From assembly GCF_054482525.1 (NCBI RefSeq), contig NZ_CM137006.1: a stretch of 64,000 bases of DNA; one strand, given 5' to 3'. Positions 1 to 33,056 of this stretch are shown here, piece by piece. The notes under the pieces are model-generated. The model saw only the letters and a list, made by a program, of their open reading frames with translations, was not told the origin of the DNA and did no database searches. The first letter of the stretch is position 1. Every line of letters starts with the position of its first letter. Made by a program: the position numbers and the translations under genes.

Positions 1-780
1 GCTGAACGCATGCAGGATGAGATTCTTCAGGAGCAAATCCTGATTGAAACCGAAGGCGAACGCATCGGGCAAATTAACGCCCTATCGGTCATTGAATTTC
101 CGGGTCATCCACGCGCTTTTGGCGAACCTTCTCGCATTAGCTGCGTTGTGCATATTGGCGATGGTGAATTCACCGACATCGAACGCAAAGCGGAGCTTGG
201 CGGCAATATCCATGCGAAAGGGATGATGATCATGCAGGCGTTCCTGATGTCGGAACTACAGCTTGAGCAACAGATCCCCTTCTCAGCATCGCTGACATTT
301 GAGCAGTCATACAGTGAAGTGGATGGCGATAGTGCCTCGATGGCTGAACTCTGCGCCCTGATAAGCGCCCTCGCCGATGTGCCGGTGAATCAGAGTATCG
401 CTATCACAGGTTCAGTCGATCAGTTCGGTCGCGCCCAGCCGGTCGGTGGTTTAAATGAGAAAATCGAAGGCTTCTTTGCTATTTGCCAGCAACGTGAGTT
501 AACGGGGAAACAAGGTGTCATTATCCCCACAGCTAACGTTCGCCATTTAAGTCTTCACAGTGAGCTGGTGAAAGCGGTAGAAGAAGGTAAATTCACCATC
601 TGGGCAGTAGACGATGTGACTGACGCACTGCCGTTATTATTAAATCTGGTGTGGGATGGCGAAGGCCAAACGACGCTGATGCAAACCATCCAGGAACGTA
701 TCGCGCAAGCATCGCAACAGGAAGGACGTCACCGTTTTCCATGGCCATTACGTTGGCTGAACTGGTTTATTCCGAACTGA
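1..780 (+). CDS. ycbZ: Lon-like protease YcbZ, C-terminal part (5' end outside window)
   Basis: ORF 10..780 is in frame from position 1; Lon proteolytic-domain-like sequence ([10 protein letters not shown] region); sits immediately upstream of fabA as in E. coli. Confidence 0.85.
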
Positions 781-791
781 TCGGACTTGTT
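775..791 (+). promoter_or_regulatory. FadR operator of the fabA promoter (AACTGATCGGACTTGTT)
   Basis: Sequence matches the FadR box known for fabA (recalled); lies about 60 nt upstream of the fabA ATG and overlaps the ycbZ stop codon. Confidence 0.7.
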
Positions 792-792
792 C

Positions 793-810
793 AGCGTACA
801 CGTGTTAGCT
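793..810 (+). promoter_or_regulatory. FabR operator of the fabA promoter (AGCGTACACGTGTTAGCT)
   Basis: Palindromic element directly downstream of the FadR box, followed by TATCCT as a likely -10; matches the described fabA FabR site (recalled). Confidence 0.6.
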
Positions 811-848
811 ATCCTGCGTGCTTCAATAAAATAAGGCTTACAGAGAAC

Positions 849-1367
849 ATGGTAGATAAACGCGAATCCTATACAAAAGAAGACCTTCTTGCCTCTGGTC
901 GCGGTGAACTGTTTGGCGCTAAAGGCCCGCAATTGCCAGCACCGAACATGCTGATGATGGACCGTGTGGTCAAAATGACCGAAACGGGTGGTAACTTCGA
1001 CAAAGGGTATGTTGAAGCAGAACTGGATATCAATCCGGATCTGTGGTTCTTCGGATGCCACTTCATTGGCGATCCGGTTATGCCAGGATGCCTGGGCCTG
1101 GACGCAATGTGGCAGCTGGTAGGGTTCTACCTCGGCTGGCTGGGCGGCGAAGGTAAAGGCCGCGCGCTGGGCGTTGGCGAAGTGAAATTCACTGGTCAGG
1201 TACTGCCGACAGCGAAAAAAGTGACCTACCGTATTCACTTTAAACGCATTGTTAACCGTCGTCTGATTATGGGCCTGGCGGATGGCGAAGTGCTGGTTGA
1301 TGGTCGTTTGATCTATACCGCCAGCGACCTGAAAGTCGGTTTGTTCCAGGATACGTCTGCCTTCTGA
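849..1367 (+). CDS. fabA: 3-hydroxydecanoyl-ACP dehydratase/isomerase FabA (172 aa)
   Basis: ORF-track 651..1367 trimmed to the internal ATG at 849 ([13 protein letters not shown]); active-site region [14 protein letters not shown]; the 5' extension overlaps ycbZ and the fabA promoter. Confidence 0.95.
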
Positions 1368-1395
1368 TTATAATCAGACAGAGTATCAAAAGGCG

Positions 1396-1424
1396 AAACC
1401 TCCGCAATGCGGAGGTTTCTTTTT
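1396..1424. terminator. Bidirectional rho-independent terminator between convergent fabA and rmf
   Basis: Perfect 10-bp stem AAACCTCCGC / GCGGAGGTTT with 3-nt loop, flanked by T-run on + and A-run (T-run on the minus strand). Confidence 0.75.
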
Positions 1425-1436
1425 AAAGAGACAGAA

Positions 1437-1604
1437 TCAGGCCATTACTACCCTGTCCGCCATGGCTTCTCGCCAGCCTCCCAGCCATTGTGACCTTTGA
1501 TTCAGCGTCTGATAGGGACACATTTCTTTTGAGCGTCCGGCGATGCCGGCCTGATAACCACGTTGATGTGCCCGTTCCAGGCGATCTCGTTTTTGTCTCT
1601 TCAT
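1437..1604 (-). CDS. rmf: Ribosome modulation factor (55 aa)
   Basis: Hand-translated minus-strand ORF MKRQKRDRLERAHQRGYQAGIAGRSKEMCPYQTLNQRSQWLGGWREAMADRVVMA; below the ORF-track length cutoff; the listed 65-aa ORF 1423..1620 is an overlapping wrong frame. Confidence 0.9.
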   Translation of the reverse strand: MKRQKRDRLERAHQRGYQAGIAGRSKEMCPYQTLNQRSQWLGGWREAMADRVVMA

Positions 1605-1803
1605 GCCTCGTTTCCCTCATACTGGTTTCTGGTGGAAAAGAAAACAGTGATTACTAAATGTGCAATCACAGTTAAGCAATACCGCGAATCATAACTGCCG
1701 TCAATGCGCAAAATTCACGCCACTGTCATATTTGTGAGCTACACGGGCATGTCGGTTGTACAAAAAATGTGAAGAGGAACAACTTTTTCCGCACCTTAGA
1801 AAC

Positions 1804-1837
1804 AAAAAAACCGCCTCAGGCAACATACCGGAGACGG
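1804..1837 (-). terminator. Putative pqiC terminator hairpin
   Basis: Imperfect stem CCGCCTC..GAGACGG (one G-U pair in the minus-strand transcript) followed by a U-run on the minus strand just downstream of the pqiC stop. Confidence 0.4.
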
Positions 1838-1859
1838 TTATATTTACAAATCTTTATAA

Positions 1860-2423
1860 TTAAGGTAGACGCTTTATCTCTTGCGCAATAGAAGCGGCTT
1901 CCTGACTCCAGACACTGGCCAGTACTTTAACCATCTCATCGTAACCATCCTGAGTTTGCACCCCTTCCAGACGGAACGGACGTTTGATCAGTTGTCCCTG
2001 GTGGTTCAACAGCCATTCACCACTGACAATGACCTTGCCATCATAGCGACCGTTAAACTCCGTTACGGTAACATTGAGCGTGTCCTGGGCGCTTCCCAGA
2101 GGCTGGGAGGCAACCACCCAGCCGGGCAGTTGCGTACTCAGGTTGGCAACCAGAGTGTTGCGCAACTGTTGATCCAACGGGCTGGCCCACAAGTTGTTGT
2201 TGGCAATCACATACTTCACATCACTGGTTTGATAAACCACACCATTTCCGGCCAGATAGTCAGGAACAGCGAACTGCTCTACCCATAACAGGCGATTACC
2301 CTGGCTGGCGGTACTTTGTGTACCGCTCTGCACCACAGGTAACTGGTAATAGTTTTTATTAATTTCGCCGGAGCTGCATCCGGCCAGCCACAGTGCTGCA
2401 ATCGTCACTAGCCACTTTTTCAT
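1860..2423 (-). CDS. pqiC: Paraquat-inducible lipoprotein PqiC (YmbA)
   Basis: ORF track, 187 aa; signal peptide with lipobox LAGCSS; 4-nt overlap with pqiB stop. Confidence 0.9.
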   Translation of the reverse strand: MKKWLVTIAALWLAGCSSGEINKNYYQLPVVQSGTQSTASQGNRLLWVEQFAVPDYLAGNGVVYQTSDVKYVIANNNLWASPLDQQLRNTLVANLSTQLPGWVVASQPLGSAQDTLNVTVTEFNGRYDGKVIVSGEWLLNHQGQLIKRPFRLEGVQTQDGYDEMVKVLASVWSQEAASIAQEIKRLP

Positions 2424-4060
2424 TGTTTCGCCCTCTTCGGCTCTGGATCTTTTTTGTCCTTCGCTTCAAATACCAGCGCGTTACTCTTCTCATTGAGCGT
2501 TTTCAGCACCGGTTGCAGTTCTCGCAACACCTGATCAAGGCGCTGCATATCCGCCACCATCTTGTTGTAGGCTGCGGAGCCAGGCTGGAAGCCCTGCATA
2601 CTGCGATTCAATTCACGCAACGTTGACTGCATATCCGTCGGTAACTGCTGCATCGACTGGCTGGCGAGGATCTTGTTCATGCTATCCAGCGTCGTTTGCA
2701 GGTTTTTCATTGTGCGCTGACTTTCAGAAAGCGTACTGGTTGCCTGTTCAATCATCGGATTCAATGGCAGTTTGTTGATCTTATCCAACGCTTCCATCAG
2801 TCGTTGCTGGATTTGCGCCAGACCGCCGCTAACGGTCGGGATAATCTGATAACCATTAAATTCACGAATACCGGTTATTGCAGGCGTATTTGGATAGAAA
2901 TCGAGATCAACATACAGTGCGCCAGTGACCAGGTTTCCGGTTTTCAGCGATCCACGTAAACCACGTTTCAACAATTCGCCAAGGTGCTCAACAACATCCG
3001 CATTTTCGCCAAGCTGCATTTTCAGCCGCTCTGGCTCGATACGAATCAGTACCGGAATACGGTAATCATCGTTAAATGTCTGACGCATATTCGGCGCAAA
3101 GAATGGCACTTTGCTTACGGTACCCAGGCGAATACCCCGGAATTCTACCGGAGCTCCCGGTTGCAGACCGCGTACCGAATCTTTAAAGAACATCAGATAA
3201 TCAATGTGATCGGTGTACAACGAATCCTGAATGCTCTTCTGATCATCATACAAAACGAAAGCTGTTTTCGGTGCCACTGGCTGCCCTAAATCCAGACCTT
3301 CCGGCACATCAAAGCTGACACCGCCACTAAGCAGCGTTGTCAATGAGCCCATCTCCACACGCATTCCCGCTGACGTCAAATCAACCGCAATGCCACTATC
3401 TTTCCAGAAGCGAACATTGCTGGTCACCAGTCGGTCATAAGGTGCATTGATGAACAGTTGATAGCTGATATTGCGTTTTTGCGTATCGAAGGTGCTGGTT
3501 TCAACCGAACCTACCCGATAGCCACGGAACAGCACGGGATCTCCTGGCGAGAGCTGCCCGGCTTTTTTGCTATCGAGAATCACACGGATACCTTTCGCAT
3601 CAGGCGGGGCCAACGGTGGCGAGTCCAGCAAATCGTATTTATCCATTTTGCTGCCTTTCGCGCCTGGCTGCAGTTCGATATAAACCCCAGACAGCAGCGT
3701 TCCCAGGCCGCTAATCCCTTCTCGACCAATCTGCGGTTTCACCACCCAAAAGACGGTATCTTTATGCAGCAATTTTTCCATACCGGAATTCAGCCGCGCT
3801 TTGATTTCAACGTGCGTCAAATCATCAGCCAGTGTGGCGCTTTCAACCACGCCGACGTCAACGCTACGGCTTTTAATGGTGGTTTTACCACCTTCTATTC
3901 CTTCCGCATTCGCGGTGATCAGGGTCACTTCCGGCCCCTGATGGCTGTAATGATAAAAAAGAACCCAGGCCCCAATGAGCGCCGTGACGATAGGAAATAT
4001 CCACACGGGAGACCAGTTCTTCACTTTCTGGATTTTGGCTTCCCCATTATTAGATTCCAT
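2420..4060 (-). CDS. pqiB: MCE-domain intermembrane transport protein PqiB (546 aa)
   Basis: ORF-track 2420..4120 trimmed to the conserved start MESNNGEAKIQ; single N-terminal TM helix followed by repeated MCE-like domains. Confidence 0.9.
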   Translation of the reverse strand: MESNNGEAKIQKVKNWSPVWIFPIVTALIGAWVLFYHYSHQGPEVTLITANAEGIEGGKTTIKSRSVDVGVVESATLADDLTHVEIKARLNSGMEKLLHKDTVFWVVKPQIGREGISGLGTLLSGVYIELQPGAKGSKMDKYDLLDSPPLAPPDAKGIRVILDSKKAGQLSPGDPVLFRGYRVGSVETSTFDTQKRNISYQLFINAPYDRLVTSNVRFWKDSGIAVDLTSAGMRVEMGSLTTLLSGGVSFDVPEGLDLGQPVAPKTAFVLYDDQKSIQDSLYTDHIDYLMFFKDSVRGLQPGAPVEFRGIRLGTVSKVPFFAPNMRQTFNDDYRIPVLIRIEPERLKMQLGENADVVEHLGELLKRGLRGSLKTGNLVTGALYVDLDFYPNTPAITGIREFNGYQIIPTVSGGLAQIQQRLMEALDKINKLPLNPMIEQATSTLSESQRTMKNLQTTLDSMNKILASQSMQQLPTDMQSTLRELNRSMQGFQPGSAAYNKMVADMQRLDQVLRELQPVLKTLNEKSNALVFEAKDKKDPEPKRAKQ

Positions 4061-4064
4061 ACTG

Positions 4065-5318
4065 TCAGGACTCCTCATGCTCTGATTCAGGTTGACGATC
4101 CCACGACAAACGCGGGTCAAACGTCATAGCAGAAAACATTGTCATTATGACGACTAAAGCAAACATTAATGCACCCATTGCCGGATAAATACTCATTAAA
4201 CCTCCCATACGCACCAGCGCCGAGAGCACCGCGATAACGAAAACGTCAATCATCGACCAGCGGCCTACAAACTCAACAACTTCATAAATCAAATGCATTC
4301 TTTCACTGTCGCGCTTGCCATGCCCTTTGGCATCCCAACACAGCCACGCGATGGCGATCATCTTTAACGTTGGCACCATAATACTGGCCAGAAAGATCAC
4401 CGCAGCGACGGGATAAGAGCCTTCGCTCCATAATAGGATGACCCCAGCGAGAATCGTCGATGGCATCTTCGAGCCTAATAAATCCGTCACCATGATGGGC
4501 AAAATATTAGCCGGAAGATACAGCATGATGGACGTAACAAGCAGCGCGAGTGTCCATTGCAGGCTGTTTCTACGCCGAACGTACCCTTTGGTACTACAGC
4601 GCGGGCATACGGGTTCGTCAGCAGGAAGGATTGCCGTACAACAGGAGCATGAACGCAGCCCCTGACGTATCCCCGTGACGCCTAGTTTTAGCGGCTGGCG
4701 CAGTTCTGGCATCGGGGCGATATCGTCCCATAACCAGCGACGATCAACGCACTGAAAGGCGCGCAGTTGCAGGACACAAAATAAACACCAGGGGAGAAAG
4801 CTACTGCCGACACCAATGCTGCCGTAGGCCATCAGTTTAACGAAACTGACCAGCACTCCCGCGAGGAAAATCTCCGCCATTCCCCAGGTTTTGAGTTGAA
4901 AAAGCACCCGTGCCAGTTGCTCTTTTAAACGGACCGGTAATTCCGCGCGATTCACCAGTAACAGAATGGTTATCAGACAAAACGCGGGAACCAGTTGCAC
5001 AAACAACAGGAAAAAGGTGCCGAGGCTGGCGTAGTCCTCAGAAAAAAGCACGCCGGGAATTTCCAGTAATGTAATTTCACTGGTGACTCCCGCAACGTTC
5101 ATATTCACAAAAGGAAACAAGTTGGACAGCAACAGCATGAACAGTGCAGCCAACGCATAGGCGGTGGGACGCTGCCGAGGGGCATCCCACGCCACGGTTA
5201 ACGTTGTGCCACACCGGGGACATGCCGCTTTCTGACCATGCTCAAGGCGCGGTAACGCCACCAGCATGTCACACTGCGAGCACAGGATGTGCTTCGCGGC
5301 ATGATGATGTTCGCACAT
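4065..5318 (-). CDS. pqiA: Inner-membrane protein PqiA
   Basis: ORF track, 417 aa; two Cys-rich zinc-ribbon-like motifs (CSQCD...CPRCG, CSCC...CPRC) with multiple TM segments. Confidence 0.9.
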   Translation of the reverse strand: MCEHHHAAKHILCSQCDMLVALPRLEHGQKAACPRCGTTLTVAWDAPRQRPTAYALAALFMLLLSNLFPFVNMNVAGVTSEITLLEIPGVLFSEDYASLGTFFLLFVQLVPAFCLITILLLVNRAELPVRLKEQLARVLFQLKTWGMAEIFLAGVLVSFVKLMAYGSIGVGSSFLPWCLFCVLQLRAFQCVDRRWLWDDIAPMPELRQPLKLGVTGIRQGLRSCSCCTAILPADEPVCPRCSTKGYVRRRNSLQWTLALLVTSIMLYLPANILPIMVTDLLGSKMPSTILAGVILLWSEGSYPVAAVIFLASIMVPTLKMIAIAWLCWDAKGHGKRDSERMHLIYEVVEFVGRWSMIDVFVIAVLSALVRMGGLMSIYPAMGALMFALVVIMTMFSAMTFDPRLSWDRQPESEHEES

Positions 5319-24313: not shown

Positions 24314-24835
24314 ATGAAACATTCATTTGAAGTAAAACTTGCCGCTGTAAATCACTACCTGGCTGGTCATGCAGGCATCATTTCTACGGCAAAACTCTTT
24401 CAACTTTCTCACACCAGCCTCTCACACTGGATTAATCTTTTTCTTCTTCACGGTCCTCGGGCACTGGATTGCAGACACAAGCGTAGCTATTCTCCTGAAG
24501 ATAAACTTTGCGTGGTTCTTTATGCTCTCGGGCATTCTGAGTCTCTACCCCGGGTAGCTGCCCGGTTTAACATTCCCAGCCACAACACGGTTAAAAACTG
24601 GATAAAAGGCTACCGCAAATCTGGTAATGAGGCCTTTATCAGGCGCAGGAAGGAGAAAAGCATGACCCGTTCTGATGATACCCATGAAAACGAGGCAAAC
24701 ATGACGCCGGAAGAGATGAAGAATGAGCTGCGTTATCTTCGCGCAGAAAATGCATATCTGAAAGCCATGCAGGAGCATCTCCTGGAAAAAAAGCGCCAGG
24801 AGCTGGAGAAAAAACGAAAGTCATCCGGAGCCTGA
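24314..24835 (+). CDS. IS3-family transposase OrfA (helix-turn-helix and leucine-zipper part)
   Basis: ORF-track 24305..24835 (GTG) with likely ATG at 24314 (MKHSFEVKL) preceded by AGGTG; ends just after the slippery heptamer A-AAA-AAG at 24787-24793. Confidence 0.85.
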   Translation: MKHSFEVKLAAVNHYLAGHAGIISTAKLFQLSHTSLSHWINLFLLHGPRALDCRHKRSYSPEDKLCVVLYALGHSESLPRVAARFNIPSHNTVKNWIKGYRKSGNEAFIRRRKEKSMTRSDDTHENEANMTPEEMKNELRYLRAENAYLKAMQEHLLEKKRQELEKKRKSSGA

Positions 24836-24939
24836 GGTGCGGACACTGCCAGTCTGACCTGTTAAAGGCTGCAGGGCTGGCCAGAAGCACGCTGTACTAC
24901 CAGCTGTCACTGCAGAAGGCTAAGGACAAGTATGCTGAT

Positions 24940-25694
<755 letters not shown>

Positions 25695-31982: not shown

Positions 31983-33056
31983 ATGATGAAGCGCAATATT
32001 CTGGCAGTGATCGTCCCTGCTCTGTTAGTAGCAGGTACTGCAAACGCTGCAGAAATCTATAACAAAGATGGCAACAAAGTAGATCTGTACGGTAAAGCTG
32101 TCGGTCTGCATTATTTTTCTAAAGACAATGGTGTAAACAGTTACGGCGGAAACGGCGACAAAACTTATGCCCGTCTTGGTTTTAAAGGGGAAACACAAAT
32201 CAATTCCGATCTGACCGGCTACGGTCAGTGGGAATATAACTTCCAGGGTAACAACTCTGAAGGCGCTGATGCCCAGAAAGGTAACAAAACTCGTCTGGCA
32301 TTCGCAGGTCTGAAATTCGCTGATGCGGGTTCTATCGACTACGGTCGTAACTACGGTGTGGTTTACGACGCACTGGGTTACACCGATATGCTGCCTGAGT
32401 TTGGCGGTGACACGGCATACAGCGATGACTTCTTCGTTGGTCGTGTAGGCGGCGTTGCTACCTATCGTAACTCCAACTTCTTCGGTCTGGTTGACGGCCT
32501 GAACTTTGCCGTTCAGTACCTGGGCAAAAACGAACGTGCTGGTATTCCTGAGCGTTCCAACGGCGACGGCGTCGGTGGCTCTATCAGCTACGAATTCGAA
32601 GGCTTTGGTATCGTAGGTGCTTACGGTGCAGCAGACCGTACCGACGCCCAGGAAGCCGAATTCCGCGGTCAGGGTAAAAAAGCTGAACAGTGGGCAACTG
32701 GTCTGAAGTATGACGCGAACAACATCTACCTGGCAGCGAACTACGGTGAAACCCGTAACGCTACGCCAATTGAAGGCGGCTTCGCCAACAAAACGCAAGA
32801 CGTTCTGTTAGTTGCGCAATACCAGTTCGATTTCGGTCTGCGTCCGTCCATCGCTTACACCAAATCTAAAGCGAAAGACGTAGAAGGTATCGGTGATGTT
32901 GATCTGGTGAACTACTTTGAAGTGGGCGCAACCTACTACTTCAACAAAAACATGTCCACCTATGTTGACTACATCATCAACCAGATCGATTCTGACAACA
33001 AACTGGGCGTAGGTTCTGACGACACCGTTGCAGTGGGTATCGTTTACCAGTTCTAA
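31983..33056 (+). CDS. ompF: Outer-membrane porin OmpF (357 aa, loop-variant allele)
   Basis: ORF track; signal peptide [22 protein letters not shown], mature N-terminus [11 protein letters not shown]-terminal VYQF; differs from remembered K-12 OmpF (362 aa) mainly in predicted external loops. Confidence 0.95.

Follow-up and report, generated by a model that had tools for sequence, protein, structure and literature searches.

Intrinsic terminators that act in both directions between convergent genes have reportedly been described genome-wide in E. coli. A 5′-terminal stem-loop is reported to be able to stabilise an E. coli mRNA, namely that of ompA (Emory, Bouvet and Belasco 1992). The rmf RNA motif of Rfam (RF01755) is a conserved structure that precedes rmf in Pseudomonas. 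The leader of E. coli rmf has been described among the polyamine-modulon leaders, in which the Shine-Dalgarno sequence is distant or bulged (Terui 2010; Sakamoto 2020, PMC7177335), and its structure and polyamine response were published with the inclusion of NMR on an RNA covering -41 to -1 (PMC7177335). The rmf mRNA was found to have a half-life of ~24 min compared with 2-4 min for typical mRNAs, its transcription was ppGpp-dependent, and the mRNA was found to be polyadenylated. The rmf mRNA is reported to be stabilised in the stationary phase (Aiso 2005, as cited in later work), and its stability has been linked to persister formation.

The window, a stretch of 64,000 nucleotides, is a part of the E. 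coli chromosome. Its genes, their order and the 255-nt pqiC-rmf spacer were the same as in the K-12 rmf locus (b0953, pqiC-rmf-fabA; rmf at 1,015,715-1,015,882 and the pqiC end at 1,015,459), and no substantial difference from K-12 was found, the window representing a non-K-12 strain in the reverse orientation. The positions 1300-1950 were 100% identical to PCN033, and the region was present at 95-100% identity in 5,423 of the 5,426 complete E. coli genomes. The elements of the locus are already annotated and published, the observation being correct but ordinary, although the ends of the rmf mRNA are conserved to an unusual degree; the annotation of E. coli gains nothing from it, as the rmf gene, its promoter region, leader and terminator have all been studied before. 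The gene very probably forms a self-contained, monocistronic E. coli transcription unit of ~280 nt with an insulating terminator, a sigma-70-type promoter, a structured leader and hairpins at its ends. The locus was found to contain the following features.

849-1367, plus strand: fabA coding sequence (172 aa), convergent with rmf (Pfam FabA, E=4.8e-53; NCBIfam equivalog, 325 bits; RefSeq).
1385-1394, minus strand: rmf-side tail GCCUUUUGAU, with the U tract beginning 3 nt past the stem (fold, scan, published read-through).
1395-1419, both strands: shared hairpin with a perfect 11-bp stem (GAAACCTCCGC / GCGGAGGTTTC) and a 3-nt loop, terminator-like on both strands (folding, scan, covariation).
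1420-1424, plus strand: T5 tract directly after the stem, part of the apparent terminator in the fabA direction, tail TTTTTAAAGA (sequence, scan).
1425-1436, minus strand: rmf 3′ UTR element (C)UGUCUCUUUA, complementary to the rmf start-codon region (entropy, inverted repeat, duplex energy).
1437-1604, minus strand: rmf coding sequence (55 aa and stop), ribosome modulation factor (Pfam, NCBIfam, structure match, RefSeq).
1605-1645, minus strand: leader helix 2 (-41 to -1), in which a U-rich tract pairs with the Shine-Dalgarno (SD) region (alifold; published structure).
1647-1669, minus strand: 5′-terminal hairpin of the rmf mRNA, GUGAUUGC, 7-nt loop, GUAAUCAC (fold, covariation).
1669, minus strand: rmf transcription start, a G (TSS table of Kim et al. 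2012).
1675-1670, minus strand: A+T-rich discriminator TTAACT (sequence against the mapped TSS).
1676-1704, minus strand: core promoter with the -35 element TTGACG (1704-1699), a 17-nt spacer and the -10 element TATTGC (1681-1676) (sequence against the mapped TSS).
1705-1770, minus strand: conserved upstream regulatory DNA (GTAGCTCACAAATATGACA..GGCGTGAATTTTGCGCA; CACATTTTTTGTACAA), with blocks at least 80% conserved (MAFFT, 57 sequences).
1800-1839, minus strand: pqiABC terminator, an interrupted hairpin (1839-1809) followed by a U run of 7 U, 2 of them in the stem (fold, conservation).
1860-2423, minus strand: pqiC coding sequence (187 aa) (Pfam ABC_trans_aux, E=3.6e-39; NCBIfam pqiC, 283 bits).

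The rmf product was found to match the Pfam family RMF (PF04957) in residues 1-51 of 55 with E=1.7e-22 and 79.6 bits (cutoff 27.9), followed by a match to the NCBIfam equivalog NF011162 with 92.1 bits (cutoff 40). The residues 1-55 matched the 55-residue RMF chain in 6H4N, 6H58 and 9IOT (E=2.7e-34) and likewise the RMF chain of 4V8G; 6H4N is the structure of the E. coli 100S ribosome, and in hibernating ribosomes RMF sits on the 30S subunit. RefSeq annotates rmf at 1437-1604, with the protein WP_000828648.1, in an E. coli record that is 100% identical, and according to the literature the identical E. coli RMF protein causes 70S ribosomes to dimerise in the stationary phase, which gives 90S/100S particles. 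An earlier sequence-only reading had named the gene as rmf, in agreement with these matches, and had stated that its 55 aa lie below the cutoff of the open reading frame list, the default of which is indeed 60 aa. The 55-codon gene missed by the length filter is real and complete, which matters for annotation pipelines. An alternative-frame open reading frame of 65 codons (1423-1620), opened by an invariant upstream AUG at -16, was rejected as a gene because its length varied across species between 11 and 82 codons. The 3′ coding end of rmf contained no constraint suggesting the seed of a 3′-derived small RNA, and the third positions varied freely in the entropy of the L001-L056 alignment.

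The pqiC-proximal hairpin 1809-1839 was found to fold on the minus strand with -17.7 kcal/mol (z -4.35) followed by the presence of a U run, and on the plus strand with -11.2 kcal/mol (z -3.07) and without a T tail. As a U run accompanies this stability on the minus strand alone, the hairpin is read as a one-directional terminator of pqiABC, and with its U tract it would end the pqiABC transcripts ~20 nt past the pqiC stop codon. Nearly all of the 55 Enterobacteriaceae loci contained a hairpin with a T tract at the pqiC-proximal position, the stem sequences differing widely, and compensatory changes were found to preserve the structure of this hairpin as well as that of the shared hairpin.

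The start of rmf in the supplementary TSS table of Kim et al. 2012 is NC_000913.2 1,014,873 with 493 reads and a 5′ UTR of 65 nt, and the upstream K-12 sequence listed there was identical to positions 1719-1669 of the window. The sequence-only reading had proposed a comparison with mapped starts. This genome-wide start falls on G1669 (-65), whereas Yoshida et al. 2018 placed the single RpoD promoter start of rmf at -58 and not at -65. If the start is at -58, the 5′ arm of the leader hairpin 1647-1669 is not transcribed. The rmf promoter was assigned from the mapped start together with conservation; a strict sigma-70 consensus scan of 700-2600 called no promoter. The nucleotides TTGAC and TATT were found to be conserved in the MAFFT alignment of 57 Enterobacteriaceae sequences, and the -10 hexamer did not contain the usual T at the last position. 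A sigma-70-type promoter composed of TTGACG, 17 nt and TATTGC would start rmf at G1669, with a poor -10 element and an A+T-rich discriminator. A promoter with such elements would be of the kind activated by ppGpp/DksA, and ppGpp may act through the discriminator. In published RNA-seq, rmf was found to have its own primary promoter. The published inputs to rmf include ppGpp, cAMP-CRP, ArcA, McbR, RcdA, SdiA, SlyA, CsrA (indirect) and polyamines, in line with the complex regulation that had been expected from the sequence. A CRP candidate noticed by eye at 1704-1719 contained more than 3 mismatches, and no CRP site is claimed there.

The 5′-terminal hairpin 1647-1669 was found to contain 8 pairs, of which 3 were G-C, with a modest stability of -8.9 kcal/mol (z -4.02). 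In the alignment, 96.3% of the cells were paired, compared with 16-36% when the partner was slid by 1-2 columns, and compensatory changes were found at 3 pairs, one of which occurred as GC 25 / AU 22 / GU 6. RNAalifold predicted the same hairpin independently. A published genome-wide start is hereby tied to a covarying 5′-terminal hairpin that is absent from the RNA family libraries. No Rfam family matched the rmf leader at E up to 1 (positions 1-5000 of the window), and RF01755 gave no match in seven related loci either. The enterobacterial rmf resembles RF01755 in having a conserved structured leader before the same gene family, but it is not a member of RF01755, since the covariance model gave no match.

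Leader helix 2 was predicted to contain SD1 in a bulge, 11 nt upstream of the AUG, and a paired SD2, 2 nt upstream. No covariation was available for this helix because its sequence is nearly invariant. It is exactly the rmf element published with the polyamine-modulon leaders and is the polyamine-responsive element described there, whereas the published RNA (-41 to -1) did not contain the 5′-terminal hairpin. The 65-nt leader would open with an 8-bp hairpin and zero unpaired 5′ nucleotides, followed by the U-rich stretch that pairs with the Shine-Dalgarno region. As in ompA, the rmf hairpin belongs to an mRNA with a long lifetime, lies no more than one nucleotide from its 5′ end and is conserved by covariation, whereas it has no sequence relation to the ompA stabiliser and its stabilising effect is putative for rmf. 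The rmf mRNA is stable in the stationary phase, whereas for the ompA mRNA stability goes with fast growth.

The region upstream of rmf, given by the sequence-only reading as ~255 nt (1605-1859), was bounded accordingly by the pqiC end at 1860 and the rmf start at 1604. It had also been called unusually long, which did not hold, as it ranked 4 of 17 among the co-directional spacers longer than 100 nt in the window (602, 268, 260, 255, 206 nt and so on, longest first), and the size of the downstream gene gives no reason for the spacer to scale with it. This rank weakens the somewhat doubtful reading in which the spacer is long as a multi-factor regulatory region, with most of the length needed for stationary-phase control. 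The length was nearly constant (median 256 nt in the Enterobacterales loci; 243-269 nt in Enterobacteriaceae) and the blocks conserved at 80% or more lie between 1705 and 1770, both of which favour such a region, but ~60 nt of the spacer were taken by the pqiC 3′ UTR and terminator and 65 nt by the transcribed rmf leader (together ~125 nt), so that ~130 nt were left for the promoter and upstream DNA, and the stretch from the pqiC terminator to ~1770 was poorly conserved in the 57-sequence alignment. In vitro, 74 of the 194 purified transcription factors bound a 256-bp rmf upstream probe (Yoshida 2018), which can be counted in its favour, although binding by 38% of the tested factors suggests low specificity, and the CRP consensus scan gave a single site within the limit of 3 mismatches (it contained 3), which is as frequent as expected by chance (2.8 per kb), and at a non-canonical distance. 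The hairpin 1647-1669 with its U-rich tail was also considered as an attenuator, or a second barrier to transcription running on from pqiABC or from a start farther upstream, instead of a 5′ stabiliser. The scan did list it as terminator-like with 8 pairs and the tail TGTTTTCTTT, and the hairpin and the U-rich tract were conserved jointly; the stem, however, opens with the very base of the mapped start with 493 reads, a conserved -35/-10 pair lies at the correct distance upstream, the 3 G-C pairs, 7-nt loop and -8.9 kcal/mol are weak for a terminator, and the U-rich tract already has an explanation, since it forms the 5′ side of leader helix 2, all of which make this role highly improbable.

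The reading of 1647-1669 as the 5′-terminal hairpin of the rmf mRNA was also consistent with the fold of the whole transcript. The predicted 282-nt rmf mRNA folded with -104.2 kcal/mol (z -4.65), and both end hairpins were found in the MFE as well as in the centroid structure. A hairpin at each end of the mRNA fits its known long half-life. In the proposed model, the leader would be followed by the 55-codon open reading frame, a 20-nt 3′ UTR and the 11-bp G+C-rich hairpin. The 5′ hairpin may block the 5′-end-dependent attack of RNase E and RppH, the 3′ hairpin may block 3′ exonucleases, and this protection could account for the stationary-phase half-life of tens of minutes, with decay on outgrowth possibly proceeding through oligoadenylation of the 3′ hairpin. 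The 5′-terminal hairpin could explain in simple and testable structural terms why the rmf mRNA is so exceptionally stable, and this stability controls the speed of ribosome exit from hibernation.

The shared hairpin 1395-1419 was found to fold with -19.6 kcal/mol (z -4.81) on the plus strand and with -20.2 kcal/mol (z -5.39) on the minus strand, and 0 of 200 shuffles were as stable in either case. Its stem contained 7 G-C pairs out of 11. A consensus scan of 700-2600 listed 5 terminator-like sites against 2.0 +/- 1.4 in shuffles, and 1395-1419 was called on both strands with TTTTTAAAGA as the tail in the fabA direction and GCCTTTTGAT as that in the rmf direction. In 59 distinct sequences, 97.2% of the cells were paired, followed by compensatory changes at 6 of the 11 pairs; slid controls contained 42-52% paired cells, and 0 of 500 shuffles reached any of the five measures. 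The sequence-only reading had placed rmf between a pqiC-proximal hairpin and a perfect bidirectional hairpin of 10 bp; the arrangement with convergent fabA was correct and both hairpins were stable on folding, an outcome by which the reading passed the test it had set for itself, whereas the shared stem contained 11 bp. In Rfam, only sub-threshold leader-peptide models were returned for the shared hairpin (E 0.4-0.9, well under the gathering scores), and these are a generic resemblance of a hairpin followed by a U tract.

The 3′ ends of rmf reportedly map to this hairpin, and it looks like an element that would end both the rmf and the fabA transcripts. On the opposite strand, the same palindrome with its direct T5 would terminate the convergent fabA. 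Like the bidirectional terminators mentioned above, the locus has one palindromic hairpin, rich in G+C, within the 69 nt that separate the convergent stop codons, flanked by an A tract and a T tract such that each strand carries a hairpin and then a U tract. It differs from that class in the asymmetry of its sides (T5 against GCC-UUUU). On the rmf side, GCC precedes UUUU after the stem, which agrees with the 5-of-8 rule of the scan at an offset of 3 nt, and with its U tract 3 nt away from the stem this side departs more from the terminator consensus. In published RNA-seq, the rmf transcript ended before or within ycbZ-fabA depending on the growth condition, and this read-through together with the GCC gap makes the term terminator only partly true for rmf.

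The rmf 3′ UTR element was found to have low per-position entropy across L001-L056 and was conserved in Enterobacteriaceae. It forms part of the inverted repeat I2 (1426-1436 / 1591-1601, 11 nt, 91%), and its duplex with the start region had -12 to -13 kcal/mol with z mostly between -2.4 and -4.6. The duplex contained no covariation, both partners being invariant within Enterobacteriaceae, and the sole change, in Enterobacter, shortened it and was uncompensated.

The asymmetry of the tails, the condition-dependent ends of rmf and the convergent order would all suit a hairpin that is mainly a fabA terminator and deliberately leaky for rmf, making a growth gene and a stationary-phase gene into a reciprocal antisense or interference module. 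The order pqiC > rmf >< fabA was retained in 73 of the 80 Enterobacterales loci, and Paraglaciecola (L062) and Pseudoalteromonas (L084) likewise had convergent rmf/fabA. The core of the hairpin, however, stays with rmf where fabA is not the neighbour (Cedecea, Dickeya, Pectobacterium, Serratia), the rmf-side U tract adjoins the stem directly outside Enterobacteriaceae, the effect of either antisense RNA is putative, and 75% of the convergent E. coli operon pairs overlap somewhat, so that read-through is not special here; such a module is rather unlikely. The same core, CCUCCGC/GCGGAGG, was nearly invariant across Enterobacterales and contains an SD/anti-SD helix sequence, which raises the question of a sequence-specific role beyond termination, with recognition by a protein, the 30S subunit or RMF. 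The exact core was found in 67 of the 80 species, also where the terminator is one-directional (e.g. Pectobacterium), three C-G pairs were invariant in 59 of the 59 distinct sequences, the entropy at the third-codon positions of rmf reached 1-1.8 bits in the 56 Enterobacteriaceae, and in published work the RNA-binding protein YhgF binds rmf mRNA strongly in vivo. Such a role is nevertheless very unlikely: compensated variants (CCUCUG/CAGAGG and CCACCG/CGGUGG) make the exact sequence not obligatory, the motif is buried in a helix of -20 kcal/mol, CCUCC/GGAGG stems are present in other terminators including the Rfam Phe leader consensus, and rmf of Plesiomonas, Pseudoalteromonas and Paraglaciecola did not contain the core. 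A two-strand palindrome is moreover barred from G-U intermediates and would evolve more slowly from that alone. An extended form, in which rmf is transcribed into a conserved RNA clamped at its ends and the frozen core and the 3′ UTR element UGUCUCUUUA (pairing with the start codon and codons 2-4) are sequence-specific regulators, setting stationary-phase storage against rapid destruction on outgrowth or coupling rmf to the ribosomal anti-SD region where RMF binds, is likewise a long shot.

The shared hairpin was found to be far more conserved in its stem core than the one-directional pqiC terminator nearby. In 56 Enterobacteriaceae, the loop-proximal 7-mer of the shared hairpin occurred in 6 variants (47 identical) whereas that of the pqiC terminator, 400 nt from the rmf core and changing freely in the same genomes, occurred in 49. 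Two intrinsic terminators 400 nt apart, one frozen across the order and the other turning over, can be used to ask what constrains the evolution of terminators.

The rmf locus was found to be a textbook locus in which all elements named by the sequence-only reading had been annotated before and are already known. Beyond it, a small surplus is added by three results, namely a 5′ hairpin at the mapped start, a frozen terminator core and a start region that is complementary to the 3′ UTR. Window positions 1300-1950 were 100% identical to the E. coli PCN033 chromosome and were carried at 95-100% identity by 5,423 of 5,426 complete E. coli genomes, with fabA, rmf and pqiC annotated. The orientation is the reverse of the K-12 map, and the features in plus-strand gene order, with the promoter of rmf, were as follows.

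to 780, first in the order: 3′ end of ycbZ
849-1367, plus strand: fabA, equivalog-level model match (FabA)
1437-1604, minus strand: rmf, Pfam E=1.7e-22, NCBIfam equivalog 92.1 bits
1681-1676, minus strand: rmf -10, TATTGC, 17 nt from the -35
1704-1699, minus strand: rmf -35, TTGACG, properly spaced from the mapped start
1860-2423, minus strand: pqiC, equivalog-level model match (PqiC)
next after pqiC: pqiB

The RMF protein was aligned end to end with the RMF chain of the E. coli 100S ribosome structure 6H4N, and the identities of RMF, FabA and PqiC are firm as judged by homology. A 65-codon ORF in another frame (1423-1620, minus strand), overlapping all of rmf and opened by an invariant upstream AUG at -16 from the rmf start codon, was rejected as a conserved gene, since between species its length varied from 11 to 82 codons.

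The hairpin between convergent rmf and fabA (1395-1419) was found to contain GAAACCTCCGC, a 3-nt loop and GCGGAGGTTTC. The sequence-only reading had proposed a perfect 10-bp stem common to both genes; the hairpin and its perfect pairing were upheld, the length being 11 pairs. Folded as RNA, the fabA strand gave -19.6 kcal/mol and the rmf strand -20.2, stabilities reached by 0 of 200 shuffles in either case, so that the instability which would speak against the observation was not found and the observation was confirmed. A terminator was also called by the consensus scan on both strands, as the proposed bidirectional terminator would have it, with tails that differ: TTTTT directly follows the stem on the fabA side, and GCC followed by TTTT on the rmf side. 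This offset U tract agrees with published RNA-seq, in which the rmf side was leaky and read through in some conditions. The hairpin is alike to its closest class, the bidirectional intrinsic terminators between convergent genes, and fabA transcripts would end at the same palindrome as rmf.

Among 80 loci fetched, one genome per species, the order pqiC > rmf >< fabA was kept in 73. The shared hairpin was 97.2% paired (59 distinct sequences) with compensatory change at 6 of 11 pairs, mostly at the stem base, and the observed values were reached by 0 of 500 shuffles; on this comparative evidence it is a real and selected structure. The exact core CCUCCGC/GCGGAGG was found in 67 of the 80 species and was near-invariant across Enterobacterales, three of its C-G pairs being invariant. 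The exceptions were compensated (CCUCUG/CAGAGG, CCACCG/CGGUGG) or contained a single G-U pair (Klebsiella, Edwardsiella). In 56 Enterobacteriaceae the rmf terminator had only 6 variants of its loop-proximal 7-mer, with 47 sequences identical; the pqiC terminator, 400 nt away, occurred in 49 variants in about 55 Enterobacteriaceae, and entropy at rmf third-codon positions reached 1-1.8 bits in the same set.

The preferred explanation of the frozen core combines two causes, the constraint of a palindrome on two strands and the need of a long-lived mRNA for a very stable 3′ hairpin. A palindromic terminator used on both strands would be barred from G-U intermediates, since each G-U pair would be matched by a C-A mismatch on the opposite strand. 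The core was, however, retained beside rmf where fabA no longer adjoins (Cedecea, Dickeya, Serratia, Pectobacterium), and in Pectobacterium, where the gene after rmf is co-directional, its presence shows that the two putative causes do not cover everything. That the 3′ elements act as sequence-specific regulators of the fate of rmf mRNA is quite improbable. The core was absent from the rmf of Plesiomonas, Pseudoalteromonas and Paraglaciecola; the latter two still contained convergent fabA, with another palindromic terminator, GCCCCA...TGGGGC.

Convergent rmf/fabA with a short palindromic terminator reaches beyond Enterobacterales to Alteromonadales (Paraglaciecola locus L062, 2501-2721; Pseudoalteromonas locus L084, 1501-2235). 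In Serratia proteamaculans (locus L081, 1736-2327), an IS200-type element with STnc490 RNA (152 bits) and a Y1 transposase gene was found just 3′ of the rmf terminator, in the place of fabA.

A single rmf start is given in the table of Kim et al. 2012 (NC_000913.2 position 1,014,873, 493 reads, 5′ UTR of 65 nt), whose upstream sequence was identical to the window and ended at G1669. The start of Yoshida et al. 2018 is at -58, so that the two lie 7 nt apart, at 1662 (-58) and 1669 (-65); covariation of the 5′ hairpin and promoter spacing favour -65. The -10 was followed by an A+T-rich discriminator, TTAACT, and TTGAC and TATT were kept across 57 Enterobacteriaceae sequences. The poor -10 and the discriminator would fit a ppGpp-requiring promoter; rmf depends on ppGpp according to the literature, and the link between ppGpp and the discriminator is one we infer.

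G1669 was found to open an 8-bp hairpin (1647-1669, minus strand; -8.9 kcal/mol, z -4.02) containing GUGAUUGC, a 7-nt loop and GUAAUCAC, and RNAalifold predicted the same hairpin independently. In an alignment of 60 Enterobacterales leaders, standard pairs occupied 96.3% of cells, against 16-36% when the 3′ partner was slid by 1-2 columns. Both sides were changed at three pairs, one of which was GC in 25, AU in 22 and GU in 6 sequences, and the frequent G-U pairs point to an RNA rather than a DNA palindrome. Even in Paraglaciecola and Pseudoalteromonas (Alteromonadales) the rmf leader showed a hairpin, GUGG...CCAC, with UGUU after it; Rfam families, the Pseudomonas rmf motif included, gave no match to the rmf leader. 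As no 5′ nucleotide is left unpaired, the hairpin resembles the 5′-terminal stabiliser of ompA (Emory et al. 1992). Downstream, invariant UGUUUUCUUUUCC was paired with GGGAAACGAGGCA, which is the published leader helix, with the first Shine-Dalgarno sequence (SD1) bulged out and the second (SD2) paired. NMR work (PMC7177335) addressed this helix as a polyamine-responsive element, and polyamine-modulon leaders are among the closest known classes. By sequestering the Shine-Dalgarno sequence it would throttle rmf translation, with tuning by polyamines.

The hairpin at each end of the rmf mRNA should hinder 5′-end-dependent attack by RNase E and RppH and 3′ exonucleases, and 5′-terminal stabilising hairpins are among the closest known classes. 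For this mRNA a half-life of about 24 min has been reported, whereas typical values are 2-4 min, and it is stabilised in stationary phase; both observations are matched by such ends. The proposed working also includes polyadenylation in the decay of the mRNA during outgrowth. The mRNA is polyadenylated, and this decay reportedly proceeds via short oligo(A) tails at the terminator.

In the fold of the predicted whole rmf mRNA (1669 to 1388, 282 nt; -104.2 kcal/mol, z -4.65), the hairpins at both ends were preserved, and a 3′ UTR segment, UGUCUCUUUA, was paired with UGAAGAGACA. The latter spans codons 2-4 as well as the start codon and includes a rare but invariant AGA codon. The same pairing was returned by the repeat finder as the inverted repeat 1426-1436/1591-1601 (11 nt, 91%). 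The duplex was spotted only after the mRNA fold had been viewed. Its energy was -12 to -13 kcal/mol, relative to shuffled 3′ UTRs its z lay mostly between -2.4 and -4.6, and it was present in every Enterobacteriaceae locus, with weak complementarity outside the family. Both partners are invariant in Enterobacteriaceae and thus contained no covariation. The modelled pairing is a lead only; it would account for conservation of the rmf-proximal 3′ UTR next to a fabA-proximal flank that is not conserved.

The pqiC-proximal hairpin foreseen from sequence was present at 1809-1839, beginning 20 nt past the pqiC stop. It was stable on the minus strand only (-17.7 kcal/mol, z -4.35) and followed by a U run, which makes it a one-directional terminator, at which pqiABC transcripts would stop. 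Between the pqiC stop codon and the rmf ATG lie 255 nt; the terminator and 3′ UTR of pqiC take up about 60 nt of them, and the rmf leader 65 nt. This spacer had been called unusually long; among co-directional spacers above 100 nt in the whole window by annotated coordinates (602, 268, 260, 255, 206, 198, 184, 180, 173, 172, 168, 168, 159, 153, 129, 110 and 110 nt) it falls in the upper quarter and is no outlier. More striking than the spacer's length is how little it varies, with a median of 256 nt over 79 loci and 243-269 nt in Enterobacteriaceae, although the sequence of the pqiC terminator, and of the DNA immediately downstream of it, diverges freely. A CRP consensus scan of the rmf upstream region was uninformative. 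Blocks at 1705-1770 were conserved in 57 Enterobacteriaceae sequences and fit the many published rmf regulators, in line with the complex regulation that had been proposed.

Elsewhere in the window, ompF (about 31983-33056) is a pseudogene with an internal stop per the annotation of the identical RefSeq record, and an IS3-family element (IS1397 transposase, programmed frameshift) was found between pepN and ssuB (about 24314-25662).
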